NCBI GenBank assembly: GCA_000934665.2
Contig: KZ538004.1
Location: 62,001-126,000, forward strand
From: Catajapyx aquilonaris
Lineage: Eukaryota
Direction: 5' to 3'
Length of the DNA: 64,000 bases
Of the stretch, positions 1,454-35,722 are shown piece after piece. Each line of letters begins with the position of its first letter. Position 1 is the first letter of the stretch. The translations under genes were made by a program, and so were the position numbers. The notes under the pieces are model-generated. The model searched no databases and was not told the origin of the DNA. It saw only the letters and a list, made by a program, of their open reading frames with translations.

Positions 1454-1579
1454 ATTATACATTTTTCACCCTCGTCAGCAGTTGTGTCGATTACATTAAT
1501 AAGAAATATTATAGGTTATGCTCCTCAAATATGTAGAAGTCAGGCAAATTGGAGGATAAGATGAACAGGACTGACTGAC

Positions 1580-1797
1580 CATTTCCATTGGAAGGATATA
1601 GCTGTGTATTCGCTGCTTACATCCCTCCGAAAAGCATTTTTTGCAAATTGTCTTGTTGTCCAAGGGTGCTTTCCCTGAATTGCATTCTTGCCCAATAATA
1701 GTCACCAAATCATCCTTTGTCAAGTTTATCAGGAACCGTTTATGAGCTACCAGAGGAGGTAGAGCCTGGGTGACAAGGTATGGTATGACCTCATAAT
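1580..1797 (-). other. Candidate divergent TBC1D15/17-like exon inside a TBC1D16 intron (DYEVI...LPP...CFSEGCKQRIHSYILP)
   Basis: strong acceptor (tcctgtccctcacttcag), donors at 1620 and 1579, open frame; motif spacing resembles the pre-TBC and TBC-start segment; out of phase with the flanking TBC1D16 exons. Confidence 0.35.
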
Positions 1798-2353
1798 CTG
1801 AAGTGAGGGACAGGAGCACTATACAAAGGTGTACAAAGCAGGTTTATCCTGGAAAACGCTAGCTATTTTTGTGAGGTCCTATGCTCTTTTTTTTGTTACA
1901 TACATGGATTCCTGAGTTCAGCAATGGATTACTGAACCACATAATCTGTGCAGTCAGTATGTATAGGCCTACTGGCCAAGTGTATCCAACTTGGTGCAAC
2001 TGTGCTTTCAAGTTACTTTGAAAACACTGTTACGTAATTAGGTTAAATTTTTATACAATAAAAAACTATGCCACCTAGTCAATTAAAAGTGCCACCAAAT
2101 ATACTATTCACATAATTATGGAAGCCGCCAATTTTCTTTTTCAATTCATTATTTGGGCAAATTCATGTGCGTCTATGCTGCTGTCCCAAGGGGATTAGTG
2201 CAGGACATGTATTTGACTTTCACCCCAACTAGTTTTGGAGTTAGGGTGTTTCTCCTTGGGATGGCAGTATGGTCTAAGACATGATTTAATATTTTTGTGA
2301 TGTTCCCCAAGTCTTTGAGCACTCTTGCCATGTGCCCCATTCTATGTGCTATA

Positions 2354-2777
2354 CAGGGTGTATCTGAACTCAGTGCCCCGACGTATATGACTGCCTTCCT
2401 AGCCACCAGAGGATCGATTTAAGTATAGGGTCATTATGTCTGGCCGCCGCATTACTGAGATAATTGGCCGCAAACATGTAGTACAAAATATCCTGTCGGT
2501 TAGGCCACCCATCGAACCCTCCCCCAGTCAGAAGGCTCTGGAAGGTCTGGGGGAGGGACTTTGTTGGTTTGTTGCCCACAGGTGGTAAGGCCTCTTTGGA
2601 TAGTTACACCAGAAAATTCTATTTAAAAGTCAGAAGGAGCGATTAGGCAAAAATCGCGAAAGAGTGTATCTCAGTAATGAGGCTGCCCAGACATAATGAC
2701 TCCTCTACATAAGTTGATCCTCTGGTGGCTAGGAAGGCAGTCATATACGTCGGGGCACTGAGTTCAGATACACCCTG
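2354..2777. mobile_element. Tc1/mariner-type MITE (CAGGGTGTATC family)
   Basis: about 60-bp perfect TIRs, TA TSD. Confidence 0.9.
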
Positions 2778-3719
2778 TAGAATGGAGCACATGGTTAGGG
2801 GCACATGGTTATGGGCACAACAAGCTACAAAAAAATAACTGATATCGGACAATATGTTATCAAAAAGTGACCCACGATTCTGGAACACCCTGTATAAGGT
2901 CGCTAACATAATCCCTTTGTGTATGGAAATGTACAATTTTTGTCACTTTAACATGTCATAACTTTTGCAAATATGGGCTTCAGCACGAAATATTTCATTT
3001 TTGGTTATCATATATTGTCCTTTATTAGCATATTCTGTTTCATCCTGATTCATTATTATCACCCATGACATGTCCCTTGTGAGTAATTCTATCAGTATAT
3101 TAATTAGCTATTAACCCTTTATCTACCGTCATAAGGAATTTCCCGCGTTGGGGGGGGGGGGGGGGNGGGGGGGTGTTATATTATATTTTAAACCTGTGCT
3201 TTGTCATCGGCCACATCTGGATGAGTCAGCAGTATTTTTTTCCTCACCGCCAAGGTCACCAAAGCCAACCTTTTAACCAGAGCTAGCTATTGACAATTGG
3301 TTATGGGACGACAGTTATTGCATTTTTTCAACAATTCTTCCAATGAATCAGCTGCAATGTGCCAAATTCAAAGTCCAGAAATGTTACATCCATGTTTCAT
3401 AGTAGTTCACTATCTGTTCTTTGCATTTGTTTTGATGTGTATTCAATACTGAATTGGAAGTCTCATGGTATTATAAAGGAAGGCAAGTACTCTCCGTCAA
3501 TAGGGAAAAAAACCCAGACGTTAATAAAATATTATTATTATTAGTAGTAGTAGTAGTAGTTCACTATCTGCCCAATGAGCATGAAGAAATTCATGACCAT
3601 TCATTATAGTTTAGCATGTAGATCGCGAAATTAGGAAATTACACTATTAACCTAATTGCCGTTATCTACTTAGTATAGTAAAGATGGCTGCCATGCCATT
3701 GGGTTTTTTCTAATTACTT

Positions 3720-3986
3720 ATTTATTTATTTATTTATTTATTTATACCCCATTGGGAGAATCGGCACTCCATTATGGGGGTGGAGTACCACCATTGGATG
3801 GGACCAAGGATAGGGAAGGAAGGAAGCGACTGTGGCCTATTATACGGAAACAACCCCGGAGTTATCCTGGGGGGACCGTGGAAAACCACAGAAAACCACA
3901 GTCAGGGTTGCCGGCCCCGGGATTCGAACCCAGGACCTCCCGATTAGCAGTCGGGCTCCTTAACCACTACACCAACTTGCTTCAGT
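3720..3986 (-). mobile_element. tRNA-derived SINE family 1, tail type A
   Basis: A/B boxes (TGGTGTAGTGG, GGTTCGAATCC), (TAAA)n tail, 18-bp TSD GGTTTTTTCTAATTACTT. Confidence 0.9.
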
Positions 3987-4927
3987 GGTTTTTTCTAATT
4001 ACTTCCTTTGTTGTGCCTTGTTTTTCACCATAGTGTAACTAAATGATGCCAATAATTACTAGCTTCAACTCCAAAACGTTTTCATCGGTTATTTTAGCAT
4101 AAGGAAGGAAATATAAGGCAAGGTTGCATTGAATCGGACACGAGTGCAGACAACCGTAACCCGATCCTCAGCCCCTAGATAAGACCTACTAGTAGATATG
4201 GCGTTAAATTCAATTTTTTTTTGCCTTTTTTCGCATCACCATTTGATGACCACAGTATTGACTTAAAAATATCAAATATTTGTCAGATGAAGCTTATATT
4301 GTAACGATTCCAACGACATCTCAAGCATTAACATCATGACCTTGACACTTGAGGTACAGCGATTTTTTCGCCATCCTGAATTCCAGGATAGAGGGAGATT
4401 TAACCCGCATACACAGCCACATGTTACAGGAAAGCCAATTAAGGCATACCGGTACCTGAAGGACCTAACATTACTGCCTCATACTAACAAGTTGAACATG
4501 ATCCATACAGTGCTTTTTCCCAGCAGCACAAGCAATGTGCAAATTGTACACCAGCTGCATTACAGTACAATATCTGTGATATCTGTAAGTGCAATATTGT
4601 ATTCACCACCAACAGGTATCCCTTGAGTGATACAATCTCAATTTTCCACCGCCATGAAGTGATCATATCTCCAACCCCTCCCTATTACCACTTTCAATAT
4701 GATCCTGGGCCAACACTATTTTCTAATCTTTCAGCCCATGACTGGCTGTTTTCCTGCCCAGTGACCCAGGTGGCTTTTATTTCAAGGACCATGTGCTACT
4801 GGATACATTGTTTAGACCTACCCCTTCCCCTTCACAACACAATTTCAGTTCAGAGAGGATTATAGCCATCAGGGATCTTCTCACACCTTGCAACCACTTT
4901 GATTCCTCAGATTAAAGAATTACACAC

Positions 4928-5159
4928 CTGCACACCATAAACTGCCGATAAGACTTATGACGCTCATTGCACCGTGCTTCCTCACTCTCTCCCTCAGCCT
5001 TCATAAGGAAGTTCCAATCTTCAAAAACATGGGCTAGGTGGTCCAAGCCTCCATGGTGGAAATGGAGAATTTTGTACTGACTTTCCATAGAGGCAATGAC
5101 AAGTTGCCCACAGGTACATTCACGATTGCTGAAGAAGAGTCGCAGTGATCGCATCTTTC
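4928..5159 (-). CDS. TBC1D16: TBC1D16 coding exon 6 (GKMRSLRLFFSNRECTCGQLVIASMESQYKILHFHHGGLD)
   Basis: near-identical to the conserved TBC1D16 block MRSLRLFFS...GQLVVASRESQYKxFHFHHGGLD; canonical splice sites, phase 1 to 2. Confidence 0.95.
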
Positions 5160-5228
5160 CTGCAAGGAAAAGCAACGCCTTCTTGCAATGCAAGCAGCTT
5201 TTATAAACTTCACTAAAGTATCACATAC

Positions 5229-6039
5229 CTAAATCTATTGTGAAAACTCCATGTGCTCGACTGCGTCGAATGGGACTAGCAGCTCTAGAAGTGGTCGTGG
5301 ATGATGCCATGGAAGACGGGCCATCTTGAAATGTAAGGTTGTGGTGCAAGGCCAAGGATTCGGGTGTTTCTTCCAACCAATTGTGACCTAGTCTCTTAGA
5401 ATATATTGTAGTCTCAATTGTGGGAGATGGTGGGCATGATTCTAAAAATTGATTGGAAGCCAATGATGTTGAGTCAGAATGACCCTGTGATGTTGATGCA
5501 TGTGCATGACTGCTTCCTTCAACAACTATAGTTGAAAAGTCACTTGTGTATGACTCGGAACAAATGTTACTCTGGTAGCAACTTGACCTTTGATTTTCCA
5601 TCACTGAACCCTCACCACTTTCAGAATCTCCATCTGAATCCAAGCATTTATCATCGTTGTTAGTGTCACAAGGGAACACTTCTGGAGAAATTGTCAGAGA
5701 AGATATATCAATCTCAGTGGCATCTTTTGGTGAAGGAATTTCAGACCTTAATGCTTGAATTGTTTTAGCATCGTCAATTTCTTCACCTTCGTTGTGTGAA
5801 GAGCTCACTTTGGACTCAGTTGAAGTAACAACATTTGTAATGCTCTGATTAATTAGTAAGTTTTTGTCTACATGGTCTACTCGATCAGGCACATTAACTT
5901 TGGAAATGCTTGCACCATGCAAAGCATCTACGGCCCATAACCTATCTTGCTGAGGACTAGTGTTACTCATCACAGTCTTGGCATTGTACATAGGACTAGA
6001 GTTCTGGCACTGACTGTGCACCTCATCATGAGGATTGCT
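5229..6039 (-). CDS. TBC1D16: TBC1D16 coding exon 5 (long Ser/acidic linker ending GVFTIDL)
   Basis: tttccag acceptor, GTATGT donor, 811 nt, phase 0 to 1; end matches TBC1D16 GVFxVDLG. Confidence 0.9.
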
Positions 6040-6364
6040 CTGGAAATAAACAACAACAAAATTCATTATCTGTTCAGTTCCTGTCAAATGTCAATCCATC
6101 ATCACAGTCAATACAGAAAAAGGTGTCATAAAAAGAACCCTGTATTATCACACTTCACCTTTGCACTTCTATCAGCTCAGAACATTATCATTCAAATTGT
6201 GTAGCATGTGATACCCAGTTGTGCTTCTTGGGTTATTTTCCAAAAGTTTCTCCTAACCTCAGTTCATGCAAATAATAACCACACAAACAATCAGGCAATC
6301 ATAACATATAGGATGCTGCAGATAAATTCGTAACATGCAATGCATGTAAATAAGTGCTTTCTAC

Positions 6365-6521
6365 CTTAAGTGATATTCCATCTGATTCATGTCCACTGAC
6401 CCCAATGCCACTATCAACTTGTGAATGGCTGTCTATGTAGGAAGAACTAGGATCTTTTTCAATACTGCAGCAATCAGAAACAGTTGATGCCATGCTGATG
6501 CTATCCTGCCTCTCTGCTTCC
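6365..6521 (-). CDS. TBC1D16: TBC1D16 coding exon 4 (EAERQDSISMAST...DGISLK)
   Basis: ctttgtag acceptor, AAG|GTAG donor, phase 2 to 0, open frame. Confidence 0.8.
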
Positions 6522-6587
6522 CTACAAAGATATACAAGGAAAACATTTTGTATCCACCATACACATCAGTCACCTACTAGCACTCAC

Positions 6588-6737
6588 TTGACAGCAAGTT
6601 TGTAACCTTCATCCATCGAAATTTCACTGCTAATAGAAGCACGACGTAAAAATGGGCTACACATAGTCACGTGAGAATGGAATGAGGGTCCAGGAGACCA
6701 TCGTGGGCTTCCACATCCACTTGTTGATCCACGAGAG
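6588..6737 (-). CDS. TBC1D16: TBC1D16 coding exon 3 (SRGSTSGCGSPRWSPG...YKLAV)
   Basis: tgtag acceptor, GTGAGT donor, 150 nt, phase 2 to 2, open frame linking the neighbouring exons. Confidence 0.8.
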
Positions 6738-6807
6738 CTACATTTAAAGAATGCATAAGTGTCATGACTTCATTTTGTCCTGTAAAATCCATGTAACATG
6801 AACAGAC

Positions 6808-6997
6808 CTTGATGGAGAAACATTTTCAAGAGACAATGGATTCTTATGAAGAGTACTATTGGGTATCCAGCTAAGAATAAGAGTGGGACTTCCACCTTCC
6901 CATTGATGGCACCGAATTGTCAGATATCCTGGGCGATGAATTGGTTCAGATTCCTGTCTGACGGTACTTGGTGGATGCACGCAAACATTGTTTTTAC
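6808..6997 (-). CDS. TBC1D16: TBC1D16 coding exon 2 (CKNNVCVHPP...PGYLTI...TLILSWIPNS)
   Basis: ttgcag acceptor, GT donor at 6807; KNNVCVHPP, PGYL and TLILxWxPNS motifs of the TBC1D16 N-terminal domain; phase 1 to 2. Confidence 0.93.
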
Positions 6998-7443
6998 CTG
7001 CAATCATAACATTCTAGATTACTGGCGTGAATAGATTTCCCACATACCAGCCAACTCTTTTCACATGGCTGCAATTACCTTTTTTCCTAATATAATTAAG
7101 CAACCCATAGACGGAATGGGTATGTTGTCAAAGCAGCAACAGCATTTTTCAATGTTTTGAGGAGCTTTCACATGATCAGTGTAGGTGGTTTTTACTTACA
7201 TGGTGCAGGCAGTCTTTAGGAATAAAAAAACACCTAATTTTGAAATCCACTGATTCTGATCAGAGTGGGATGTTAGTTTCAAAACATATATGGATAATTT
7301 CTGGAGATTTTTTTGCTACTATTGCTTGTGAGTAGGATGTTTCCTATTCTCATAATTGACATGACACCCAAATAACTTTACTTTTGTACCCAAAAAAACA
7401 TTTTTATTACTTGGCTTGCGTAATTTGTGCAATCAATCAAATA

Positions 7444-8361
7444 CGAGGTGCATCCAGAAAGTGAGTTCAGTTTCTTATTAGAAAAACTACAATGCACCCC
7501 CAGAAGTTGTATTATATACCTCTGAAAGCGTCAACTGTCTACCTTTTTTTTTTTTCAACATAAGTTCCAGCCAAATCGAGGCATTTATCATAAGAGTTAC
7601 AGAAGATTTTGTATGCCTATGTCATAGTAGTTTGCCGCTAGTCATTTCCACACCGGACTGCAACTCCTTGTCATCGTCAAACCTCTGCTTGGCATGGCAT
7701 TTCTTCATTCCCATGGACAGGTGGTAATCGCTAGGCTCTAAATCCCGGCTCTAAGGATGGTGATCGAACAATTGTCACTTGAATTGTTGCGGAAGAGTTC
7801 CAGGACTCAAAGCAGTATGCTTTCAGGCATTGTCATGAAAGAAAAACACCCTGAAACTCAACATGCCGCTATGTTTCTTTGGAATGGCCATCCTTAACCT
7901 CTGTAATGTCTCACAATAAACCTTTGGGTTGAACAAATATAGCGTCATGTTGAGTTTCGGAGTGTTTTTCTTGCGCGACAATGCCTGCAAGCATACTGCC
8001 TTGAGTACTGGAACTCTGCCGCAACAATTCAAGTGACAATTGTTTGACCACCATCCTTAGAGCCAGGATTTAGAACCTAGTGATTACCACCTGTCCATGG
8101 ACATGAAGAAATGGCATGCAAAGGAGTGGTGTCATGATGATGAGGAGTTGCAGTCCAGTGGAGAAATGGCTGGCGGCAAACTTCTATGACACATGCATAC
8201 AATATCTTCTGTAGCTCTATGACAAATGCCTCAATTTGGCTGGAATCTATGTTGAAAAAAGTAGACAGTTGAAGCTTTCAGAAGTATATAATATACAACT
8301 TCTGGGGGTGCATTGTAGTGTTTCTAATAATAAACGGAACTTACGTTCAGGATGAGCCTCG
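7444..8361. mobile_element. Mariner-derived fold-back element made of two transposase 3' ends
   Basis: TA TSD, CGAGG termini, about 400-bp inverted arms each carrying decayed (H/R)DNA and SxDLxPSDYHL motifs. Confidence 0.88.
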
Positions 8362-8704
8362 TATTAAAATCTGGTCACCCTTTTAGGAAACCAGAGAACC
8401 CCAAGAAATGTGCAGACGTAGCTAATCAATAATTGAAACTCTTTTCGTATTACAGACTGTTGCTGACCTGGGGATAAACCTCGGGACTCTGACGCATTAA
8501 GCACCATTAATTCCCATGCTGCGCACCTACTTAGTATTATCACTGCACATTTAGAGAACAAAAACATCATCTAAGCAGTCAGGGCTTTACAACTTAAAAC
8601 TGATGCTGTTGTTTATGGTATTGATATTGTCATTGTCATCATCATCGTCACTGTTCTTGTTTCCTCATCTTTTGAGCCCCCTTGATCACACCATATTTAC
8701 TTAC

Positions 8705-8804
8705 AGAACACTATTTCTGAATCCTGAGAAGGTGGTTGTGGATTATCACAGTGGCCAAATCCAAAGAGGTTGGTAGCTCGCTTGAAGAGAGTATTGAGCG
8801 CCAT
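8705..8804 (-). CDS. TBC1D16: TBC1 domain family member 16 (Rab-GAP), first coding exon (MALNTLFKRATNLFG...DSEIVF)
   Basis: ATG at 8804; GTAAGT donor at 8704 (phase 1); resembles the TBC1D16 N-terminus (xxxLLxRA...DGEIIYSKNNVCVHPP); likely acceptor at 8860. Confidence 0.88.
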
Positions 8805-10139
8805 CCTGTGTTTCAATATCCACAGGAACCCATTCTCAGCTCTCTCTCTCTCCTGCTCTCTGAAAGAACAAGATTCATTATAATACTGCAAAAACACTAA
8901 CATCAATTTTAAGTACAGAATATCAGAGTAGACAATTTGTTGAGGATCTCAGAAAGCTATCACCATTTGCACAAACTTCACCATACTACACACAGCAAAA
9001 TCATCTGGCTGTTTAGTAACTAAATAATCATTAATTTCCTTGAATGCCGAGAGATGCGTAAGTCTGAACCCATAGGATATGTCTGACTCTCATAATGTTA
9101 ACAAATTTACTCAATCAGTTACTATACAATGTTAACCATATACTGCAACACTGTAATATGAGAAACTCGTATGGGTCCAGACTTGTGGGGCACGCTGTAT
9201 TCCGCTCAAAAAGATGTGAACAATTTTGCATTGGAACCAAATGTAAAATTATCTCCATCTTTTTGAGTGATAGAGTAGTCTACAATACTGCAATGTCACA
9301 TCTGAGACCAGTTATGACTTGTGGCGTTAGTAGCTCTTGTTCGTCCAACAAACCACATGAATGAGAAACTTTAAAGTAAATATACTAATCCATCAAATGG
9401 CAGGACACACGGCTAAAACTTTAGATTCTAAAATGTTTAATTCATATTGCCCAATTACTGTAAACACAATGGCACATTCTGAACTGTGTTTAGAATATTT
9501 AAACATTTTCCTGGTAGTGTACTTCACAAACAGGCCAATGTGAGTCATGAATGCTTGGAAATTCCCAAAAGGAAGTTTCTCCTGTGCTGGTACAAGCTAG
9601 GTTGTCACAGCATGATTTCAGTCTACCAAGGTATTCAAAACGCGAAAAAGTGTCTACAACCCGTAAAAGTCGAGGGTAATACCGAAAAAACCAACCCAGT
9701 CCACAACTGTCATCAGCTTACAAGTGTCCATCGACACCATATGTTACACTTCGCAAACATCTGGATGGAATCATAACATCTGCAACACCTTATCACCAGT
9801 TTCCTTGAGCATTGCTTTCCATCGTTGCTCTGTTGCGCGTAGGATAAAAATCAGGTATGCCACAATTCCCCTTACAATCCAGCCAAACTCGTCTTATCCA
9901 TGAAGACATTGCTAACGATGTCACGACCTGTCTGCTCTGCTCACATCCACCTGAATATGGGACTAAAGAAAGAGTTACTGAACTGGCCGATGAGGGCGAC
10001 ACTGTCTGGTTGTAATAGCCCGCCATCTTCCAGTCTTCATGGAAATAGAATTTACGGTACTGTATGGTACTGTGTTCCTTCGACCTTCGAAGCTGTGTTC
10101 CCAGAACAAGTTCTGTGAATAACGAAGAATCCAAGGACA

Positions 10140-10300
10140 AATAAAAAACTCGAATCCGAACAAAAACAACAGCATATCCAACTGCCCATTAATATATGTA
10201 TTTATAATAACATAATGGACTAAAATCGCGCGCTTACTGAAGCGAACGCCGCCACTCGGATTGATGTATAAAACATTGTTTGGCTACTATTCCGTTTGGT
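10140..10300. promoter_or_regulatory. Probable bidirectional promoter between TBC1D16 (-) and the zinc-finger gene (+)
   Basis: divergent gene arrangement; repeat-free, CpG-retaining stretch; AAGATGGCG motif at 10021-10029 (-); exact TSSs cannot be determined from sequence. Confidence 0.45.
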
Positions 10301-11931
10301 GCCGGGCATGCATAAGGAGAGTGGAGAAGGGGACGCTGGATCTCTGGTACGAGATTCACAGGAGGATGGGCGGTTAGCGGAATGGAACAAGTGAACATCT
10401 TAGGTCTTGCACAGCAGGTGGTGTTTGCCTCGGATTGAGGCTGCAGTCGGAGCGTCATGTAGGTGTGGATGGGCCAGCCCTGACTCTGCCGCTTTTGTCT
10501 CGCCCGTGGTCTCGCCATTCCAACAGGACTTCTGACCTCTAGAGGTGGGTATTATAGAACAAGCCGAACTTGAAGCTGGTCTTTTTGGGCAGGAGTTTAT
10601 AGGCCCAACTCTCAGTTTTTGTGGGGGGTTTTGCAATGTTGGGGTAGTTTGGATCATCTCTTTGTGATTATCTGTGGTTCAATCTGGGGGCAGATGTGCA
10701 GCTGTGCAGGATGTCTGTACATGTGATGCTCATGAGGTGAAGTTTCTTGACATTGACAGAGCTTTTGAAACTTGGAGGTAGCATCACTTTTCTGTCAGCC
10801 TGTTTTATTGATGTTGAATGTCAGACGTTATGTTAAAGAATGGTCACATATTTTGCCCTTTTGCCACTAGCAGGAGGTACTGAAGAAAGCCAGTAGTTTA
10901 CGTATTGTGTCAATGGTATTACGCAGCATCCTCAAAATAGAAGTTGTTGGAACACGTTTGGATAGGGTCTGGTTTGCAAAATTAGGCATACCTCACCTCT
11001 ACCAGGTTTTTGTTTACTCCTGGACTTTGCCTGTTGGCTTCCATTTTTGCCTATTGTAAGTAGTGCTCCTGCGGAAAGTCAGTGACTTGCACTTGTTGCC
11101 ATTTATCAGGAGTTGGAAACTGAAACAAGTAGAGCAATAGTTTTGCGTGCATTATTTGCATCCACCATCTTTGAGGTACAAAAGGTCACTTGTCAGTTGG
11201 AGTCGAAGGAATCGTGTCTTCTCCCTGTCTTCCACATCTGTGTGATGTGACCTACCTGAAGCTGGTTCACATTGCAAGTGCATCCATTTCAGAAAGGTGC
11301 TGTGTAAATGCATGAAAGTGAACCCGTACTGTAATGATTGCAGAACAGGTTCGAAGTTGAGAGTGCAATTTGAATGGCCCCAATTAAAAGATGCACCAAA
11401 ATAATTATTATTGAACTTTTACACCTGAACATTCCACAGTTCTCAAAGACTCAAATGTCTATATGTAGAAGTTCCACATAACTGGAACTGCTGGCATACA
11501 TAGGATAAAATTCTGCAGAATTTTATCCTATGTATTTTTAGTTTCATCGATTTGAAATACGTGCCAGATTAAGTTTAGCGTTTCCACCACACTGGCTGAA
11601 GGTTCAAGGCAGACAAAAAATTATGGATTGAATTGTGATTGGGAGAAGCAGGTGACCTTTTTTCTTCCCTAGTTACTAAACTCGTTTATTCTGTGAAAAA
11701 TTTAATATAATTATGTGTTGCCAGAGGTCCATCAGACTTTTTCACCAAACTGGAGTGGTGTAACAATCAAAGGGCCAAGTTTTCGTTTATTGAATGTGAA
11801 ACTGAGGAAATAGAGGATAGTGTTTTTGTCAAGTTTGGTATTGAAATTTTATTTAGACCTTTCTAAATTGAATCATCCACAGTTCCACAACTCGAAGTTT
11901 TTATCCAGGTCCTTGGATATTCAATATATGC

Positions 11932-12169
11932 ATGGTGTTACATAATTCGACCACAAAACTTACTGGGTGAATTTCTGGGCACCAGTTGATTACATTACGT
12001 AGAGGTGCCGTTTGGGCTCTACAACCTAGTTGCTGAGATATGAGATATTTATCATGTGGAATGGTCAGTCACTAAGCTGTGGAGACCAGACAGCACCTTC
12101 ACATAAGTAATCCACTGGTGCCCAGGAGTTCACCCCAGAAGTTTTTCAGTTGACTTATGAAACACCTTG
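11932..12169. mobile_element. Decayed Tc1/mariner-type MITE
   Basis: imperfect inverted arms of about 60 bp, CA(T/A)GGTGTT termini. Confidence 0.65.
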
Positions 12170-12389
12170 TATAAGTTCCACTGTACCTCTCTTTTTGATA
12201 AGGGTGGGGAGGGAAGGTCTTAATACAAGGTCATCAAAAAAGAATGCTTGAATTTTAAAACCCTCTAACTTGAGAAGTTGTAGACTACTGGGTGGCATTT
12301 TTGTCCCATTGCTAGTTAAACTGCTAAGTTAGGAGTACCAATGTTGGCACTTGTATTACTAAGTTAGCAGTAACTAGCTGTGGGACACA

Positions 12390-12752
12390 GGGGAGGCGTG
12401 GTGGCTGAGTCGGTAACGACTCAGCTTGCTGATTGAAAGGTCCCAGGTTCAATCCTAACCCAGGAGTTCCCTTTCAACTGCATCAGGAGGGTCTCTGACC
12501 CACGCCTTCCAGGTGTCTGGCAACCTACCTCCAGGGAGACTGCACGTGACCCAATATTCCGACAATGCGCCTGTGTCTCCTCCCCAAAAACCCCGATCCT
12601 TACCCTACGTCCTCAAGTCTTTTCACGGTGATCTAAGGAAAACTAGAAAAATGGTATTAAATGGTGGCATTCCACCACCACCACCCCCCCCCNCCCCCCC
12701 CACCCCGGGCTGACTTCTCTCTAATGGGGTAAAGTAAATAAATAAAATAAAT
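12390..12752 (+). mobile_element. tRNA-derived SINE (distinct head and body, type A-like tail)
   Basis: TGGCTGAGTCGG and GGTTCAATCC boxes; ends AATGGGGTA + (TAAA)n. Confidence 0.75.
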
Positions 12753-12753
12753 G

Positions 12754-13223
12754 CCGTATTACCCCTTTAAAGCGGCATGCTGGTATAAAACGAGCTGGTA
12801 TAACTGGGGGGTGGCCGGCATGCCGCAATACCCAAGGTAGAGTTCCATCATTTTGATCCTTGTCATTTTTTTGGGAATGCATCTGACACTGTACAAAAAT
12901 AATGTTACGGTGAAAAATGTGCGAGTACAGGGCTGTGAAAATATACAAGTTCATCTGTTTCACAGGGCATAGAGTGTCACCAATCTGAGAGAGGAACCAT
13001 CCCAAACATTACAAAGGATCTGCAAAGGATCAAGGCAAATTCCTTCAGTGCTTCCTTTTGCTGGTGAGTAACCATAATTTTCATAGAGATCGTAAGAAAA
13101 CCTCGCCTTATGCTGGCATACCTCGCGTAGACCGGCATGCCGGTATAGCCACCAGATCGTGCATTTCTAAAAACTGGTCGACCTGGACTACACCGGCATG
13201 CCGCTTCAAGTGAGGTAATATGG
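12754..13223. mobile_element. MITE with CCGTATTACC...AAGCGGCATGC TIRs (pogo/mariner-like)
   Basis: inverted termini; second partial copy at about 52815-53680. Confidence 0.75.
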
Positions 13224-13597
13224 TAAATAAAAAGCTAGCAGTGGGACGAACGTTCCACCTGTGGTATCTAATTGATTTAAGTTTTGAAATGCAAAAAAAA
13301 TGTCTGAAGTTTTGGTCTTACAATAGTTTGTTTTTATATGAGCTCCATTTGTCGCTCAGCGAATGTAAATACGGTAATCAGTGTGGCCCAATTTTGCCAA
13401 AACCCAGTATCTGATATTTGGCGGGAAATTCAAATTTCACCATGTCAAATGTATTAGATGAAATTGGTAACACTTTTTTCTTGGAAGTGGAATTACAAAG
13501 TAACATTGGACTTGACGAAATTATGGTATTTTTTGTGTACCATTATGGTAAATGGTACGGACCTGGAAATTATGGTATGAATGCCACAATTATGGTA

Positions 13598-13697
13598 CAG
13601 TCGGCACGGAAAAGGTAAGAACACTTTGAAGGTTCCAGAATCCGCCAATACATTGCGCTAGACCCTCAAAGTGTCGTTACCTTTTCCGTGCCGATTG
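13598..13697. mobile_element. 100-bp palindromic MITE
   Basis: TA-flanked CAGTCGGCACGGAAAAGGTAA inverted arms. Confidence 0.75.
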
Positions 13698-14671
13698 TAC
13701 ATCTGGCACCCTTGCTCGCAGCACCCCTGGTTAAGAACCGCTGCTGTACATCTACAGCCATATCACAAATGGAAAAATGTTTCAACCGGTCCTGCCTAAG
13801 ATAGGCCTTTGACCCTTTCTGTACATGTTTTCACTTCCAAGAAATGACCCCTACTTGGTCGGACCCGTCCCTAGAAAAGGGGTAGGCTCCCATATGGGAT
13901 CAATTTACTGGCCCACTACTGAGAAAGGACGGAAATTATCAGCCGAATTTCCTTGTATCTCATTCTTCCCGAATTTTGGTTCTACCCTGGTGCTTCTCAG
14001 AGGTCTTGGTGCAGATAGTTGCTGGTTTTTCAAGTGATCAGTTCTTGTGTGGCGTGAGTCGAAAAGGTAGTTTGGGGCCTTGTCTTGGGGAATTTGTCTG
14101 TGAGTGACTGACCACTTCTCCAGATATTTTTCCCATTGGTCTTTATGAGATGGTCAAGAGAACCTCTAGTTGATGAAACTCAATGTCTAGAAATGCATCC
14201 TTTGTTGTAAAAAGGACATCTAATGTCTATTTGTTTGTCAGACTTGAGTGTCGCCCTGTAAGCACTGCCTTCATTTATTCCAGTGTAAACTCTGGTGTTA
14301 CACCAGTGAAGCACTGGTTGCACACTTGAAATTGAACATGCAATGCCATTGTGATGTCATTACACTCTGGAGTCATTGCATTGCCCCTACCCTACACAGG
14401 TCGATAAACGTATAGCACTATCATTTGCGTAATACTTCTGCACCCTGGAGGTATTCTTTCAAGCAGGGTATTACAATGGGCAGCCTCATCAATTTTATAA
14501 ATTCATTATTGGAACAAGATGCAGCTCAAAAAATTGGGCCTCATATGCTAGAAACATGTAACCAAAATTTGTGCATCCTCCAATCTCTTCTTGAAGCTAT
14601 TTGAAGTCTGACAAAATTGTAATAATATTTTGACCCCTGTATCTCACTTGGTTGTCACTCTTTTGCAATTA

Positions 14672-15310
14672 CAGTGGAACCTCGTACTTCTAACGCCCCT
14701 AACTTCAAACTTTCAGAAGTTCGAACACTAATTTTGGGATAAATTTGATCAGGAGTTCGAACGATTCTTCTAAGTTCGAACTACCCGTGCAGTGAAAAAA
14801 TTCACTCTCTACATGAATGCCATATTTTGTGCGCCCAAGTCGTCTCTCGCTCTCGCTGTGAAAGCATCTCTTGCATTACGCTCATGTGTTTTCAGTGATT
14901 TTTTTGATTAATTTTTGATGTACAGTATTTAATTGACTATACAAAGATGACTCTACTTTCAAACAGTAACCTTTCTTCTCCTCTCCACCTTCCTTTCCAC
15001 ATGGTGCATATCTACTACTCACTGGAGCAGTAAATTCCATTTTCATTTTGTTCTACAGTGTTTACGTATTTTATTTATTGTTTTCATGTGTTAATTTATT
15101 ATTTCAGGCATTTGATCATGTAATGGTTGCCTTAAATGATATGTATTTGCTGTTTAGGTTTATCAAAATGGGTATTGTCTAGGGTCTGGGAACTGATTAA
15201 TTATTCACTTTCCATGATTTCTTATGGGGAAAACTGATTCGGACTTCAGACAATTCCGAGTTCGAAAGTCCTCCTGGAACGAATTAAGTTCAAAGAACAA
15301 GGCACCACTG
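14672..15310. mobile_element. Tigger/pogo-like non-autonomous element
   Basis: TA-CAGTGG...CCACTG-TA, TTCGAA subterminal repeats; inverted copy at about 48927-49840. Confidence 0.8.
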
Positions 15311-15594
15311 TATTCCACCTTTAACTTTTTTCATGGACACTATTTTGTACCAAAAGGCTTGATGCCAAGAGACAAATAATCATCCTACATATTCCCTAAC
15401 TAATTTACTAGCATCCTTTCAAAGATGAGGTCACACACCTTGATGTGGTGCCTTGTACAAAGTCTAGATGCCCAACCTAACTAAACAATCCTGAAAAAAA
15501 CACTAAATATTTACCATGCCAAATAAGTTCTAGTGGATTTGGCCAAACATGAAGTTCTGCAGAGAAGCCATGCAAGTAGTGTACAGTTGGGTAA

Positions 15595-15733
15595 AGGAGT
15601 ATCTTTCCAGACCAGACCAAAAAATTAGCCTCCAACAGAGGTGCTGCCTGGGGGAGTGCAAGTTATTGCATCAGGGGGAGGCAGCACCTCTGTTGGAGGC
15701 TAATTTCTTGATCTGGTCTGGAGAAATACTCCT
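15595..15733. mobile_element. Palindromic MITE (Kolobok-like AGGAG termini)
   Basis: about 55-bp inverted arms, TTAA on the right and GTAA on the left. Confidence 0.65.
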
Positions 15734-15816
15734 TTAACTGTGTGTGCAGTATGATTGTCAATAGAAACTGTACCACTAATGTGTCAGATCGTTCTCTCAT
15801 TTTCCATACATTGGAG

Positions 15817-16071
15817 TAGTGGTTGCCAACCTTTTTCAGGTCACAACCCCCTTTAATGATAGTCAAGTAACCTGTGCCCCCCCCCCCCCCCCCCCCCCNN
15901 NNCCCCCCCCCCCCCCCCCCCCCAAATGGAGTGTAGAAATGATTAAGCATGTACCTGTGCGTAAATATTTTTAAAAGTCTTCGTGGTGAAATTTCCTATA
16001 AAATTTATTGCAAGTAAAAATAACTGCGGGCCCCAGAAAAGGCTTTGCAACCCCCAGGTTGGGAACCACTG
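15817..16071. mobile_element. hAT-type MITE related to family A
   Basis: (T/C)AGTGGTT TIRs, degenerate 8-bp TSD CATTGGAG/CACTAGAG. Confidence 0.7.
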
Positions 16072-16121
16072 CACTAGAGTATTGTTGAGAAAGTATTCCA
16101 GCAACTAGTGTTATCATATTA

Positions 16122-16678
16122 AGGCCGGTTCTCAAAGCAGCGGGTTGGAGCAAAGCGTGCGCTTGCAAGCGCCTTGGAGCGGGTGGTTTGGCCGCTCTGA
16201 CGTCATTCGAAAGTGGGTAAAGATTCACTTGCCCGCTGCTAGGAGCTAGCGGGTGCGATCTGCTCCGGGTTGATTTCTACCCACTTTGGCCCACCACCCG
16301 CTCCATGGGGACCAATCCGGTGGACCTGTGGGAGTCACGTGGTCACGTGACGTAATCACGTGGGCTCCGATTCGAATGTTTTGGAATATGTCACGTGACG
16401 TGGTCTTTATTTACTTGAAAATAGTTTACAAAATTGCAGGTGTATTTGGTAGTAAATGTCACTATTATGTCATATAAGTTCATAGGCAAACGTAATTATT
16501 TAAAATATTTTAATTAGCCCGCCGCCGAAAATGGTCTACGCGCTTACTCTAGCACGCACCAGCTACACACACCAGCTACTTCGTGAAGACCAGAATATTC
16601 TCGAGCTGCCAAACCACCTGTTCCAAGGCGCTTGCAAGCGCACGCTTTGCTCCAACCCACTGCTTTGAGAACCGGCCT
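16122..16678. mobile_element. PIF/Harbinger-like MITE carrying an E-box cluster
   Basis: about 70-bp TIRs AGGCCGGTTCTCAAAGCAG, TTA TSD. Confidence 0.85.
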
Positions 16679-16804
16679 TTAATGTTAAAGTGTTAACATT
16701 GAACTTCTGCCGGTAGCCTTTTACTAATTTTAATTACAGTACTTGTCTTACTAATGAGCTTGTCTTCTTTTTTACTCCCTGCAGGTCACTACCATCGTGC
16801 CAAG

Positions 16805-18154
16805 ATGAATTTTACACCATTTGGGAGCCATTTCCCTTCAGCTCTACCTTCCATTCATCAGTTTGCAGCCAAATTCACCCATGATCCACCCACAACTACG
16901 CTTTCCGGTCATCATCAAGTGATGACATCTCCCGTAATGACTACCGCTATCGATGGTGCGCGGTTTTTACGTCCCGAACATGTCACCCTTCAAGTAGCAC
17001 ACCTGGGCAGTCACGCAACATCAACGTCTGTGCCCATAAGTGTTCCAGACGCCATCAAGTACACCCGTAGTGGAAGTGTTTCTGCATCGCACCAGTTGCA
17101 GACTTTAGGAATTGCTGCTTTGGGCTCAAAGTACTCTATTGTGCCTAGTACAAACATTCATACTTTCACCCGAGTTAGTGATGAGGAAGCTATCCGCAGC
17201 TTGGTTTATTCACAAGAAAATGGCATTCTCCCACCTACTACCAGCCAGCCATCAGCTGCTAAGCAGCCAAAAAAGGGGTTCGCATCTTCAGAGCAAGATC
17301 TGCAACCACAGGACCTATGTGAAACCATCCTTAAAGACTCGGAAAAAAGTCGGCCACAACCAGAGCATGAAAAAGACAACCCAAATGAAGGAGGTTCCAG
17401 TGAGAGGCCTACGAGTGAGGATGGAAACCAAGATTCAAGCAGTGACAATCCACCTGCAGCCTTGTCACCTGTTCCATGGGGTCTCTCTACCCAAGCAGTC
17501 CCTGTGTCTGATTATCTGACACGATTTCCTTCAAACGCACTAAGCCTTCATCAGTTTTTGAAATTTTCGGCTGAGAGCATGAAAAAAGTTGAGACGCAGT
17601 TCTTGCCAACATTGACTCCTCCAATTGGAGTAGAGCCTTTAAAACCTCTGAAGAAGAAGAAGAAGAAGAAGAAGACTAAGAAAAGGCCACGGCCCAAGCC
17701 AGGGGAAATCCAGATCACGACAGCTCTGGATGGTACGACTCTGTATTGTTGCCCACAGTGTCATGTAGCCTATACAGATAAAGACCAGCTAGATCAGCAC
17801 ATGATTGGACACAAGCTGGAACGTCCATATGCATGTGACTTGTGTGGTGCACGTCTCAAAAGAAAGGAGCATCTGGACAGGCATAAACTAGGCCACTCAG
17901 ATGAGAGGCCATATGTGTGCAGTGTCTGCCTTAAGGCATTCAAACGCAGCGAGCATATGAGCCGGCACTTTACTATACACTCGGGAGAAAAGAAGCATGT
18001 CTGTGCCGAATGTGGGAAAGCATTCAGTCGCAAGGATCATCTAAACAAACATGTACGCTCCCACCTTACTAAGAGGATGAAGGCAGAGTACGCACAACAG
18101 AGGGGCACTAATGCTGATGTGCATGCCCCACCCACCCCATCTGTAATGTCTTGA
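16805..18154 (+). CDS. C2H2 zinc-finger transcription factor, 4 fingers, 449 aa from ATG 16805 (resembles the arthropod l(3)neo38-like family)
   Basis: acceptor ccctgcag at 16784; MNFTPFG...IHQFAAKF N-terminus, poly-Lys NLS, RPKPGEIxxTTALDGxTLYCCP motif, four CxxC-x12-HxxxH fingers; ends TGA CTAG. An upstream coding exon cannot be excluded (frame open from 16785). Confidence 0.93.
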   Translation: MNFTPFGSHFPSALPSIHQFAAKFTHDPPTTTLSGHHQVMTSPVMTTAIDGARFLRPEHVTLQVAHLGSHATSTSVPISVPDAIKYTRSGSVSASHQLQTLGIAALGSKYSIVPSTNIHTFTRVSDEEAIRSLVYSQENGILPPTTSQPSAAKQPKKGFASSEQDLQPQDLCETILKDSEKSRPQPEHEKDNPNEGGSSERPTSEDGNQDSSSDNPPAALSPVPWGLSTQAVPVSDYLTRFPSNALSLHQFLKFSAESMKKVETQFLPTLTPPIGVEPLKPLKKKKKKKKTKKRPRPKPGEIQITTALDGTTLYCCPQCHVAYTDKDQLDQHMIGHKLERPYACDLCGARLKRKEHLDRHKLGHSDERPYVCSVCLKAFKRSEHMSRHFTIHSGEKKHVCAECGKAFSRKDHLNKHVRSHLTKRMKAEYAQQRGTNADVHAPPTPSVMS

Positions 18155-18191
18155 CTAGCTGCTGGAGAGAGGGGGGGCACCAATACCACAG
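18155..18191 (+). CDS. Readthrough extension part 1 (LAAGERGGTNTT), after UGA-CUAG and up to a phase-1 donor
   Basis: in frame and stop-free; CAG|GTAAGA consensus donor at 18192. Confidence 0.7.
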
Positions 18192-18347
18192 GTAAGATTA
18201 TGGATATTCAGATGATAGACATATGTTGTTGCAATATACTGCATCTCAACATACATAGGATATCCTATGTATACACAGGAGTTTCTTTCAATTTATTAGA
18301 TTATAATAAATTCAGAATTGGTGAATTAGATGTACTTTCTTTCACAG

Positions 18348-18778
18348 TTTCAGCTACAGTGGATGCTGCCTACCTAGGTCACATTGCAAACATAGTGGTG
18401 GGCAATGTAGATTTTTCTGCCACAGTCCCCCAACCTCTCCTGTCGGGAACCAGCGTGCCACCAGTACCAGTGAACAAAAGGAAAGCGTCACCTGTGCGGC
18501 CAAAGAGGACCCAATTGCAGGAGCGGCCAGAAGAGCGGCGGCACATATGCAATATTTGTTCTAAGGGTTTCAAGCGCAATGACCACTTGGCTCGCCACTA
18601 CATAATACACTCGGGAGACAAGAGCTACCATTGCCGAGAATGTGGGAAAGGGTTCAGCCGAAAAGATCATCTGGGAAAACACGAGAAGTCGCACATTGCC
18701 AGGCGGGTGAGGGCTGAGTTTTCTCAGGTGCAGCGTGGAACTCCTGTGAGTGTGGCGGTACCTAAGTGTGTGGCTTAG
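18348..18778 (+). CDS. Readthrough extension part 2: exon encoding a linker, basic NLS-like patch, zinc fingers 5-6 and a duplicated SHIARRVRAEFSQ tail
   Basis: acceptor gtactttctttcacag, phase 1 matching the 18191 donor; two intact C2H2 fingers paralogous to fingers 3-4; TAG at 18776-18778. Confidence 0.85.
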
Positions 18779-20281
18779 CAGAGACTTATCTGTGTTTGTT
18801 AGTAAGTACACTTTTTATATTTATGACTGGTGGACACATACCCAGTGTTTATGCTTTTTGTCACAGGTTTTGCCTGCTTTTGTTTATTGCACCTTCTAAA
18901 CTCATGTATGGCTAGCAAATGTTGCCATTACATTTTTTTGTGACAGAGGAAAGTACTTGTTGATGAGGATTGTGCCTTGTTTTTTGGTTAATTTTTTCTT
19001 GCAAAGGATCAGCATAATGGCACTGTGATGAGGAAGAGCAGCTCAAACTGATGATTAGTGATATCATTCCCATGTGTTCCTTGAGTTTTTAAAATGCCAT
19101 TTCTTCGTAGCCATTTTGGCTTTTGATTTAACTTGATTTGCCATGTATAGTGTGTGTGCCATTTTTGCTTATTTCTGTGGGTCTTAATGTGTTCTTCATT
19201 GACTGCTTTATGCAGCTATGTTGATTTAAAATTTTATTTGTGCTGATTCAGAATAGAAGAAAACAGATGATATGAAATGTTGTACACTTACACAAAGGAT
19301 TTATCATAATTGGAAATGTACAAAGATCATGTAATACTATGAAATATGAACTAGTCATTGTAAGTCAAACTGTTTGAAGTGAACATTAATATTTGGTTTT
19401 TTATTCATAATAGAGCATAATATTGTGTAAGTAAGTAGTGTTGTGTTAGTTAAGTGGGAGGAAAGATGATTCTATGGCAACTGCACATTAAGTCAATGTC
19501 TGATTAATCTGAAATTGATCTTACTCTGGAGATATTCTTGGGAGTGTTTTGAGGAGCACTTGTCAAATACTTGCATGGTGGGGTGCAGAAAGGCCTTGGT
19601 AACAACACAAAACTGCAAACTCATGACCAACCAATTTTAATGGGACTTAGAAGATATCAGTATGGAGTGATTGGCTAGGAATAGTGTGGAACAGTAAACT
19701 GAGTTTTTTAATGAGACTAATTCCGTGCTCCTACTTTACTAAATTTTAACCCATATTCCCATTGTTCAGGCAACATGTGGCTGAGCAATCAGAATAGGTA
19801 ACCAGGGAGAGCTGTCCCAGGCACAGGGTGGAGAGAGGCAAGGAGGCAGTGGGAACTAGGCCGAGTGTCATCCCCAACTCACCTCACTTGAATAGTATGA
19901 TTAGAGTCTCATGCAGTCAGTATGGCTGGAAAAAGTCAGGCTGCAGCAATATTTTAAAATCAACTGAAACCAGCTGACCTTACAGTGTCCCACTACCATG
20001 CCACCTCCATGTCCAGACTACCATAATGAATGAGATAGGCATTGCTTTACAATAATTGGAGTACAGTGAAACCTCATTATAACGCTCCTGCATATAATGC
20101 TATTCCCCTCATAACACCCCTTTTTTCTGGTCCTTTGATCATCCCCATGCGGGCCCGCTTATTGATTTGGCAAATATGTCAATTTTAGTTCACATACGCA
20201 TACGGTTATTTGCAGTCACACATGTCGGTACTACCCTAGAGAACACAATTTGTCATGTAAGCATGTGGACAATGTCTATAG

Positions 20282-21078
20282 CAGCGGTTTTCAAACTGGG
20301 GTATGCGAACGATTTCGTGCAATGGCGTCCGTTGTCTACATTTGTGGGGAAAATTTTAAAGAAAAAAAAAAATATGGGAAAAACAAACCTGGGATCTAAG
20401 GATATCCGATAAGTGGAAAACATGTGGAAATATCGGAAGGTGAGATGGGAGGGAGGATTTGGTGGGGGGGGATACGACTTGAAATGAGCAGCCTAAATGT
20501 ATTACTTCCATATAGGGTCAATATGCAGGACCGTGGAACTGCAAATTACACACATCTCCCTAGGTGCAAATACTGCAAAACAACTGCCCACTTATTCCCA
20601 GATGTTAGTGATTAGTGCACCAACTGGCGCAGCAGTATACGAGAGTACAGGATCGAGAAAAAATTATCGACGTTTCAACAGATGGAAACAGGATTTAAAA
20701 CAGGAATTTGGACATAAAAATCCTCGGCACCTTTTGGGCGGAAAGCATTGACGATTATCCTGGCATGGCCCCAAGCTGTGCTTTGAAACACTTGATTCCA
20801 TTATTTTGCCACAACCTATTTACATGTGGAGCTGGCTTTTCATCAAAACAATACCGGAATTGACTGACTGTGGAAAAAAACGACTTGAGACTCAAATTGA
20901 CGTCACTTGTCACAAACATTGACCACTTGTGCGCAAGCAAGTAGACCCATCACACTAACTGGTAATTAGTGCTCACAATTACTACGTATTATAATTATGG
21001 TAGCATGAGAATGGGGGTACAAACTGTCTGGGCAAATTTGAAAAGGGGTACGCAGCGAAAAAAGTTCGGGAAGCCCTG
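20282..21078. mobile_element. hAT non-autonomous element
   Basis: CAG termini, perfect 8-bp TSD GTCTATAG; empty site present in the paralogous sequence near 37200. Confidence 0.85.
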
Positions 21079-33851: not shown

Positions 33852-35722
33852 CATTCAGAAGGTCAGCCATTTCGTCCCTACATTTCAGCAGACATTGACT
33901 TAAACATAAGCCTCTTGAGATAATATATTCTGTTGCAAAAGCATGATTTGATGTGTGCAGTCAGCTTTTACCCAAGCAGTGCAGTGGTTAAATTTTGGAA
34001 CAGCTGGTGGGAGGTCTCTCTCGTCTCAACATGGCAGCCTGAGGAAATTGGGGAGGCAGGGGACATGACAGCCTCATTTGTAGAAGAAAAAAACAACAAC
34101 TAAAAACTAAAAGCAACCTGATTCAAGGAATAATGCTGATCTTGTGTACCTTTGCCTTTCCAAGGAAGAATGCAATGTGAAAGAAACATGGTGCCATGTC
34201 TTTTTTTATTTGATAATATTTGTATTTTTGACATGCAAAGTTATTGTTAGTATGTAAAACACACTATCTGTTGATAGAAGAGTTTTTTATTCATTAAAAA
34301 AAATTATTTCAAAAGTGATTAAGTCCTTTTGAGCTTTGAGCTTTTGAGCCTTTGGATCTTATGGCTGATACAGTGTGATCCTATTTAAATGTCTTGATTA
34401 GTTTTTAAAATTTTGGCATTAGCTGCTTGTTTTAAGTAACAGCTTGTTGGGGGCTAACCAAAATATTAGTTACTCACATTAGATTGTTTTGATGCATCCA
34501 TTTTCTTTCTGAATTACAATGATTGATGAGTTTAAGACATTGAGAATGTTCCATGTGGGACATTAGCATCTGAGGTCAAGTGTTGAACCCATGTTTTACA
34601 AGCTAACCACCACTACCCCCTGTCAGTGCAGTTATATGAATCTAGACTTAACCTGGTCAGAATTTGAGTCATTGTAACTACATAATAATAGGAAATTACA
34701 AGTTTCAAGCTCAGAATCAGATGTCAACAATTGCAAAAAGTGATTGAACATTTTTTTTGGTCCATTAATGCCATAATAGGCATGTCCAGGGGGTTTGTGG
34801 GGTCTCCAGTGTAGTATGCACTGCAAAATCATAATGTGTCAAGCATTATTGGGGTAGGGGGGAGAGGGTGGAGGGGGCACACATCACTGATTTGTGCCAT
34901 AGGGTTGGTGCACCAACTTAATCCAGGTAAATCTGGCCAAAATTTTATGTTTTGGAATATATGAAGACCTCAGGGGAAGAACGATCAAGGTCCACCTCAA
35001 GTGTAACTGAGATATTCCAATTTTAAATTTCCAAATCCCATAAGGTTCCATTGTAAATCCCACTTTTGGGGCCTTCCATTGGGACCTGTGATCATTACTC
35101 CACAACCATGACCAAACAATCATATTCTAGGCTAGTGAAAGCATCTTCTAAGATAATAATATGTAACTCACTTTTAACAAAAAGTCGACCTTTACCAAAG
35201 TGGACCACATCAGCTGCCTCTCCGCAACATTCACATGTGAAATTATTCGTGGCAAGGCCCACCTCCTTACACCATCCCACAATGGCCCTCATGCCACCAA
35301 GGTGTATGAAAAAAATGCCCTGTTATTCATCGCTTGTTGTCAATAGCTCATTTCTCCCATACTCCCAGCCTGAAAGATGCTGCCATACCGGTACTGCTAG
35401 GCTGNNNNNNNNNNNNCCCCCCCCCCCCCCTCTCTCTCTCTCTCCATGAGGTGAGATTCCGGAACACACACACCACCGCCTCATTGGCTGCGGCTACGGC
35501 TGGCCGCGGCCTCCGATTGATTCACTATCATGCTGAATAGGGTTGGCCATCCACACCCGTACTTTGACCTACTCTCCTAGGCGTGTATCTGCTGAAGATA
35601 TGGCTGTGTACGCTGAAGATAAGGCTGTATCCGCAGGGAAGGAAGGTTAGGTTAGGTTGGTACAGTACATGGTACTCCTACCCCTGCCACACAAAGCAGT
35701 GAAAATTAATATTCCAGTACTA

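Follow-up and report, generated by a model that had tools for sequence, protein, structure and literature searches.

A candidate programmed UGA-CUAG readthrough that would add a duplicated two-finger module, across an intron, to a C2H2 transcription factor

AQP4 is among the mammalian genes that are read through at a UGA-CUAG stop. The introduction of Jungreis 2016 states that this context triggers readthrough in four human genes (citing Loughran 2014, Schueren 2014 and Stiebler 2014), and that work estimates that ~5-6% of stops in mosquito and fly are functionally read through, and describes the phenomenon as abundant in Pancrustacea and not in a centipede. Second open reading frames (ORFs) containing an exon break are generally classed there as alternative-splice exons unless the stretch from stop to break itself scored as coding. 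The accompanying Supplemental Data S1 list l(3)neo38-RA of D. melanogaster and AGAP004178-RA of A. gambiae as stop-orthologous 'Ancient' readthrough candidates of 8 codons with an aligned TGA in the context TGA-G (Jungreis 2016); no paper pairing neo38 with readthrough in its main text was found. Two further Drosophila transcription factors are relevant. A leaky stop in vvl/drifter is reported to yield an isoform extended by 286 amino acids with distinct activity, readthrough reaching up to 50% in the prothoracic gland (Zhao et al. 2021, PMC8417969; review PMC8863297), and the PC form of the C2H2 factor Glass has a UGA-C stop and a predicted 75-amino acid extension described as dispensable for eye development (PMC6655844). 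According to the latter source, near-cognate tRNAs can insert Arg, Cys, Ser or Trp at UGA. Here we describe a gene in a stretch of 64,000 nucleotides (nt) of Catajapyx aquilonaris contig KZ538004.1 (assembly GCA_000934665.2, positions 62,001 to 126,000), referred to below as the window, in which all positions are numbered. The gene encodes a four-finger C2H2 protein, ends in a UGA-CUAG stop, and continues in the same frame behind that stop and across an intron into an exon encoding two more fingers. We favour programmed readthrough of the UGA-CUAG stop, with a probability of roughly 0.6, as an interpretation of the sequence.

The gene was laid out using translation, Pfam matches and transcript data from the one public run found (X1; 0.89 of sampled words, available as contigs only, its kind not on record), and comprises the following features:

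13020-13063, + strand: 3' end of the 5' untranslated region (UTR) exon, ending ...TGCTG/GTGAGT with the donor GTGAGT at 13064
16785-18191, + strand: large exon of 1407 nt holding the entire main ORF, the stop and a 37-nt bridge (X1 contigs 1 and 2)
16805-18151, + strand: main ORF, a 449-amino acid l(3)neo38-family C2H2 protein (translation, Pfam)
~17744-18064, + strand: the four C2H2 fingers of the main ORF (Pfam zf-C2H2, E=1.1e-15)
18152-18158, + strand: stop TGA (itself 18152-18154) followed by CTAG, the leaky UGA-CUAG context
18155-18191, + strand: in-frame bridge of 37 nt, LAAGERGGTNTT plus the first base of the junction codon, stop-free and ending CAG/GTAAGA
18192-18347, + strand: intron of 156 nt, GT..AG, GC 0.29, a multiple of 3, skipped by X1 contig 2
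18348-18775, + strand: coding part of exon 3, 142 full codons without Met, comprising a pre-finger region, a basic patch, two fingers and a tail (P0002 = 18350-18775)
18473-18508, + strand: basic patch NKRKASPVRPKR, resembling the K-rich/RPKPGEI patch before main finger 1
18542-18610, + strand: extension finger 1 (C2H2), a paralog of main finger 3 (Pfam zf-C2H2, P0002 residues 65-87)
18626-18694, + strand: extension finger 2 (C2H2), a paralog of main finger 4 (Pfam zf-C2H2_4 and zf-C2H2_6, P0002 residues 93-115)
18776-18778, + strand: second stop, TAG, closing the 605-residue readthrough ORF (spliced-ORF translation)
18779-19689, + strand: 3'UTR, colinear with the genome (X1 contig 2 to 19343, contig 3 = 19457-19689)

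The large exon opens behind the acceptor ...ctccctgcag at 16784, and the main ORF ends TCT TGA CTAG at 18149-18158. The acceptor AG at 18346-18347 sets the start of exon 3 at 18348 in phase 1, and the two alternative acceptors noticed earlier at 18353 and 18359, whose AGs lie 6 and 12 nt further on at 18352-53 and 18358-59, are likewise phase 1. The exon 3 part of the ORF (18348-18778) measures 431 nt including the TAG, and its two fingers together match Pfam zf-C2H2 at E=5e-10. The spliced ORF spans 1818 nt, or 606 codons, with stops at positions 450 and 606 only, giving 605 residues when the UGA position is counted. Without splicing, the frame after the TGA is open for 207 codons, up to the TAG at 18776-18778. 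Every coordinate of the original prediction (ORF, TGA, bridge, donor, acceptor, exon 3 and TAG) holds to the base, and its product lengths of 449 amino acids and 605 residues were reproduced from the spliced ORF.

The X1 contigs were taken as RNA-derived because they skip two GT..AG introns, and regions without contig cover, for example the intron behind the stop, were given no evidential weight. Contig 2 (1791 nt) joins 17397-18186 to 18343-19343 with a skip of 156 nt, 0 differing letters and the TGA present; the intron is placed at 18192-18347 because GT..AG ends fit when the cut is set 5 nt rightward. Contig 1 covers 16780-17395 and carries before 16780 a 39-nt loose end that matches 13029-13058 exactly, and its single differing letter is accounted for by the last bases of the 5'UTR exon. 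The order on the mRNA is the 5'UTR exon, 16785-18191 and then 18348 to at least 19343. A junction 18191-18348 with the UGA kept in spliced RNA had been predicted and is seen in contig 2, which supports the structural half of that interpretation, namely a spliced mRNA that retains the stop and carries exon 3 in frame. In this one run, the mature mRNA has an in-frame second ORF behind a retained stop. The possibility that exon 3 is reached solely via a donor upstream of the stop is ruled out by the contig join 18191/18348.

Contigs 1 and 2 abut at 17395-17397, where base 17396 is uncovered and the mean depths are 10.5 and 5.64, respectively. A GT at 17394 would by arithmetic be a phase-1 donor; it falls under the -3-bit cut of the list of phase-1 donors, and the site is probably a coverage break.

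The top matches of the main ORF are insect proteins of ~430-550 amino acids with the same layout, one of them named lethal (3) neo38 and another chorion transcription factor Cf2. The most similar subgroup, for which we use the label type C, includes cockroach, cricket, katydid and damselfly proteins, and seven type-C orthologs are 43-46% identical to the main ORF over the full length. The full-length identity of every match is at most ~46%, so no close relative is present in the collections. Motifs common to the main ORF and type-C proteins are an N-terminal MNFxPFG, QPQDLC, DYL...FLK, a K-rich patch with RPKPGEI, four C2H2 fingers and a KRxKAE tail, and this architecture, from alignment and Pfam fingers, places the protein in type C. 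The locus is a pancrustacean, probably hexapod, gene of the l(3)neo38-like four-finger C2H2 family. The C-termini also correspond, the window protein ending ...VMS and the orthologs ...[I/T/P/S]MS or [A/S]LS.

Relatives' DNA was represented by 41 related loci from metagenome contigs, and in the type-C contigs the stop codon is likewise TGA. The position of the stop is conserved across orthologs, while stop codon and context together read TGA-G in type-C contigs, TAG-G in locus L028 and TGA-CTAG in the window. Because the main C-terminus aligns with ortholog C-termini, the stop at 18152 is considered ancestral and not a recent nonsense change. An assembly error or a recent nonsense mutation at 18152-54 is ruled out by the agreeing contig and by orthologs that end at the same residue.

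With a retained stop between the main ORF and exon 3, the routes by which ribosomes could enter the exon 3 frame become central. Splice donors were scored in bits on a generic donor matrix. The donor at 18192 scores 7.18 bits and is the sole GT above 2 bits in 16790-18192; none of the 69 GT sites in 16790-18151, upstream of the stop, exceeds 2 bits, and the best of these in phase 1, at 17733, reaches 1.92 bits. The original prediction, in which no phase-1 donor had been seen shortly before the stop, was right on this point. Work from 1992 by Hsu and by Gogos and their colleagues is said to have found that isoforms of Cf2 differ in C2H2 finger number, and hence in DNA specificity, through alternative splicing. 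An analogous minor isoform here would splice from a cryptic phase-1 donor upstream of the stop to 18348 and give Cf2-like sets of fingers. Phase-1 GTs that could serve do exist, at 17733, 17835 (1.09 bits) and 18012 (0.65 bits), and relatives gain fingers by ordinary splicing, as in locus L026 and in a 582-amino acid leafhopper isoform with added fingers; a splice-based route is thus not out of character for the family. These candidates are nevertheless weak against the 7.18 bits at 18192, and two of them (17835 and 18012) cut inside fingers. Contig 2 is moreover unbroken from 17397 to 18191, the sole contig uses the donor after the stop rather than an upstream in-frame donor of the kind employed in Cf2-like splicing, and the CTAG would be left unexplained. 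We regard this splice isoform as very improbable. Skipping the large exon, from the 5'UTR exon directly to 18348, was also considered. Since the length of that exon, 1407 nt, is divisible by 3, the frame would be preserved; it contains a TAG at 12970 and no later in-frame ATG, however, and this candidate was rejected. Exon 3 itself contains no in-frame ATG.

Dedicated recoding of the UGA, either by selenocysteine insertion or by A-to-I editing of UGA to UGG, would lead into the same frame, and UGA is the selenocysteine codon; editing at 18154 and a selenocysteine insertion sequence (SECIS) had both been raised in the original prediction. An Rfam search of 16700-20500 at E<=10 gave no SECIS, which a selenoprotein would carry in its 3'UTR, and returned only chance-level matches to cHP and MIR528. 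At 18154 the X1 contig has A, although contigs drop rare variants, and in the minimum-energy fold of 18100-18360 the stop is unpaired (z -1.58). Recoding of either kind appears extremely improbable. On the spliced RNA, the UGA-CUAG stop is the only route found into the exon 3 frame.

The stop lies in the context linked to functional readthrough, UGA then C, and in its strongest known form, UGA-CUAG, at 18152-18158. CTAG makes up 0.0022 of 4-mers in the 64-kb window. Among 20,000 mononucleotide shuffles of exon 3, a fraction of 0.0009 lacked an in-frame stop. The intron is likewise free of stops in this frame, as are 0.008 of its shuffles, and its other two frames hold 3 and 5 stops. Neither this open frame nor the two in-frame ATGs within the intron, at 18200 (A at -3, G at +4) and at 18212, had been remarked on in the original prediction; the intron also contains AATAAA at 18305. 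The open frame of the intron may have been selected for retained-intron translation or may be due to chance.

These features of the intron raise the question of whether exon 3 is translated from another RNA. An unspliced or internally initiated transcript could be translated from the ATG at 18200 or 18212 into a protein of ~190 amino acids with two fingers, or an unseen first exon could supply an AUG and a phase-1 donor, with the in-frame position behind the UGA being coincidental. The stop-free intron would be directly accounted for in this way, and tandem paralogs are usual in the family, a second four-finger unit lying ~5.5 kb downstream in loci L003 and L006, with L001/L018 as a further case. 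The composition of the intron, however, is non-coding, its GC by codon position being 0.31/0.24/0.29 without a codon-position pattern, as compared with 0.34/0.33/0.36 in the 3'UTR and 0.54-0.63/0.44-0.50/0.43-0.56 in the coding parts. The sole transcript seen removes the intron together with both ATGs, the sole upstream exon seen supplies no in-frame AUG, and it would remain unexplained why the stop is TGA-CTAG, why the frame is shared (1 in 3) and why the splice phases match. Translation of exon 3 from another RNA is in our judgement unlikely.

The origin of the extension is suggested by comparison with the main ORF. Over its fingers and tail it matches main fingers 3-4 and their tail at 54% identity, and its basic patch and a YL...FSA stretch resemble the main region before finger 1, as seen in a weak second alignment and by eye. 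The extension appears to be a reduced copy of the 3' portion of its own gene that lacks fingers 1-2 and retains the DYL-like stretch, basic patch, fingers 3-4 and tail. The basic patch NKRKASPVRPKR is a possible nuclear localisation signal. Over 66 aligned residues the main and extension copies share 36, whereas the extension shares 42-48 with type-C proteins and the main copy 41-46; the duplication is therefore considered old and both copies constrained. Relative to the consensus of eight type-C orthologs there are 9 main-only and 9 extension-only changes, with 13 columns at which both differ and 35 at which all agree. Of 51 columns invariant in those orthologs, 42 are kept in the extension and 39 in the main copy. 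Between main fingers 3-4 and the extension, across 60 codons, the proportion of nonsynonymous differences (pN) is 0.25 and that of synonymous differences (pS) is 0.79, which is saturated, and all eight zinc ligands of the extension fingers are intact.

Helix contacts at positions -1, 2, 3 and 6, assigned by eye using Zif268-type numbering, read R-E-H-R and R-D-H-K in main fingers 3-4, and the type-C consensus agrees with these; the extension fingers have R-D-H-R and R-D-H-K. Given such nearly identical contacts, a long isoform would be expected to read a second copy of the finger 3-4 half-site. These comparisons indicate that, through most of its history, exon 3 has evolved under selection on its protein product, since an untranslated copy could not keep pace over so deep a divergence. 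The comparison of coding constraint covers the finger part; the bridge (37 nt) and the pre-finger part (60-64 residues) have no orthologous extension for comparison.

The same data bear on the possibility that exon 3 is an untranslated relic, either a partial tandem duplicate or the remnant of a tandem paralog, present only as spliced 3'UTR with a frame that has not yet decayed. The extension was not found in the type-C orthologs examined and its pre-finger part is without a homolog in searches, both of which would fit a relic. Against this, the extension has accumulated no more changes than the main fingers (9 vs 9) and has kept 42/51 invariant columns, and the low pN beside a saturated pS, the intact ligands and the 142 open codons would together demand very recent silencing. 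A relic would also leave the CTAG context and the matched frame and phase unexplained, and we consider it quite unlikely. In a word-indexed search of the whole extension against near-length proteins, none of nine candidates reached E<=0.001. Of matches to the 142-amino acid extension among 1.84 billion representatives, the best 150 were all poly-zinc-finger proteins (673-5807 amino acids) matched over the fingers only, and are uninformative.

Readthrough is favoured because the UGA-CUAG stop is the sole route found into the frame of a selectively maintained exon. Under this mechanism most ribosomes would stop at the UGA and release the 449-amino acid four-finger protein, while in a fraction a near-cognate tRNA would decode the UGA in its CUAG context, and translation would proceed over the 12 bridge codons, the junction codon and exon 3 as far as the TAG. 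The product, of 605 residues, would carry a further DNA-binding module of two fingers ~100 residues beyond finger 4, and could bind a second finger 3-4 half-site with altered avidity or site spacing preference. A fuller scenario, to which we give even odds, is that a partial tandem duplicate of the factor's own fingers was exonised behind the ancestral stop and is expressed only via UGA-CUAG readthrough, so that termination efficiency rather than splicing would set the ratio of four- to six-finger protein. The intron may also have been maintained without stops and at a length divisible by 3, allowing extended proteins from spliced and unspliced RNA alike.

Readthrough itself, its level and its effect on DNA binding are inferred, whereas the layout of the sequence, a splice junction that retains the stop and lasting constraint on the added fingers at the protein level are shown. 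Several observations weigh against readthrough. The stretch from stop to exon break is only 37 nt, to be set against the rule for exon breaks given in Jungreis 2016, and the open intron frame with its ATGs permits initiation on unspliced RNA. No significant stimulatory RNA structure was found 3' of the stop (z -0.96 and +0.11 for spliced and -1.33 for unspliced RNA). A word-indexed search with pre-finger residues 1-64 against longer proteins gave 208 candidates, none at E<=10. X1 may stem from the same project as the assembly, and its contigs drop rare variants, minor isoforms and partial or low-level A-to-I editing. Neither a TGA-CTAG stop nor a two-finger exon behind the stop was present in any of the 41 metagenome loci. 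Four type-C contigs of termite type (L010, L014, L021 and L035) end HTIS TGA-G, with GACA after the TGA, followed by a second ORF of 15 codons, and no finger-coding stretch lies in the available sequence downstream of the stop in L010 (1.2 kb), L014 (3.8 kb) or L021 (6 kb); L028 ends TAG-G with no extension. The extension is lineage-specific as far as is visible, because it was not found in the relatives examined. The four type-C contigs are too alike mutually for coding conservation of their 15-codon second ORF to be judged.

Other arrangements were observed among relatives. Locus L026 (1236-2217) encodes six fingers in an ordinary ORF, with finger 5 split by an intron (...FICSVCMK / GFKRNEHLARH...); as read from sequence, this shows that the family's finger array has also grown independently, through duplication with normal splicing. 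Tandem paralogs ~5.5 kb apart on the same strand are seen in L003 (3211-3618 and 9093-9521) and L006 (4604-5011 and 10558-10971), and L001 and L018 lie on one contig. Stick-insect protein models of 760 amino acids (P0003) and 678 amino acids (P0004) are fusions of two tandem family units. In the type-B paralog all seven loci (L001-L007) end PPLLS TGA-A. Behind this stop each has the same in-frame second ORF of 29 codons, opening with ATG; the loci are too alike for its coding conservation to be judged.

Elsewhere in the window, the first intron of the gene (13064-16784) contains an inverted repeat with arms of 77 nt at 16121-16197 and 16603-16679, 95% complementary and 405 nt apart, which looks like a small non-autonomous transposon resembling a miniature inverted-repeat transposable element. 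On the - strand, 5221-6090 is an open frame of 289 codons rich in Ser, Thr and acidic residues that may be an exon of a neighbouring gene. Runs of N occur at 12683-12705, 15899-15902, 35405-35416 and 36898-36906, with five single Ns (31 in all). They sit in homopolymer or simple tracts, for example a long C run at ~12693, look like assembly or polishing marks, and none is near the stop and extension at issue here.

Readthrough as a class is already known; what would set this case apart is an extension that spans an intron and supplies a duplicated module for DNA binding. The window gene belongs to the same four-finger C2H2 family as l(3)neo38 and AGAP004178 and likewise has a TGA stop at a conserved C-terminus. 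Their extensions, however, are of 8 codons behind TGA-G with no intron and no domain, whereas the window gene is a different paralog (type C) with TGA-CTAG and 155 additional residues including two fingers. With the mammalian UGA-CUAG genes it shares the identical stop-plus-4-nt motif, the action of which is known from those genes, but their extensions are short, for example the peroxisomal targeting signals in LDHB and MDH1. Like vvl/drifter, it is a transcription factor in which a leaky stop would give a long isoform; the 286-residue extension of vvl is not described as a DNA-binding domain in the accounts cited above, and readthrough of the window gene is predicted from sequence. Glass PC is likewise a C2H2 factor, with a UGA-C stop and an extension predicted to arise by readthrough, and differs in that the extension follows all five fingers and adds none. 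As with Cf2, one gene would make proteins with different C2H2 finger numbers, but in Cf2 the choice is made by splicing, whereas the window transcript keeps the stop and the choice would fall at translation termination.

If correct, this would mean that readthrough can add an entire selectively maintained DNA-binding module to a transcription factor, and that a duplicated gene fragment can be captured through a leaky stop, making readthrough an entry route for a new domain. In the precedents compared (vvl, Glass, l(3)neo38 and the mammalian UGA-CUAG genes) none of the extensions is characterised in the accounts cited above as an added DNA-binding domain. Pipelines usually dismiss a second ORF as an alternative-splice exon when it crosses an intron, as the treatment in Jungreis 2016 indicates. 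With l(3)neo38, a paralog, listed as an ancient candidate for readthrough, the family could offer a setting in which to study how a short leaky-stop tail grows into a domain-bearing one.

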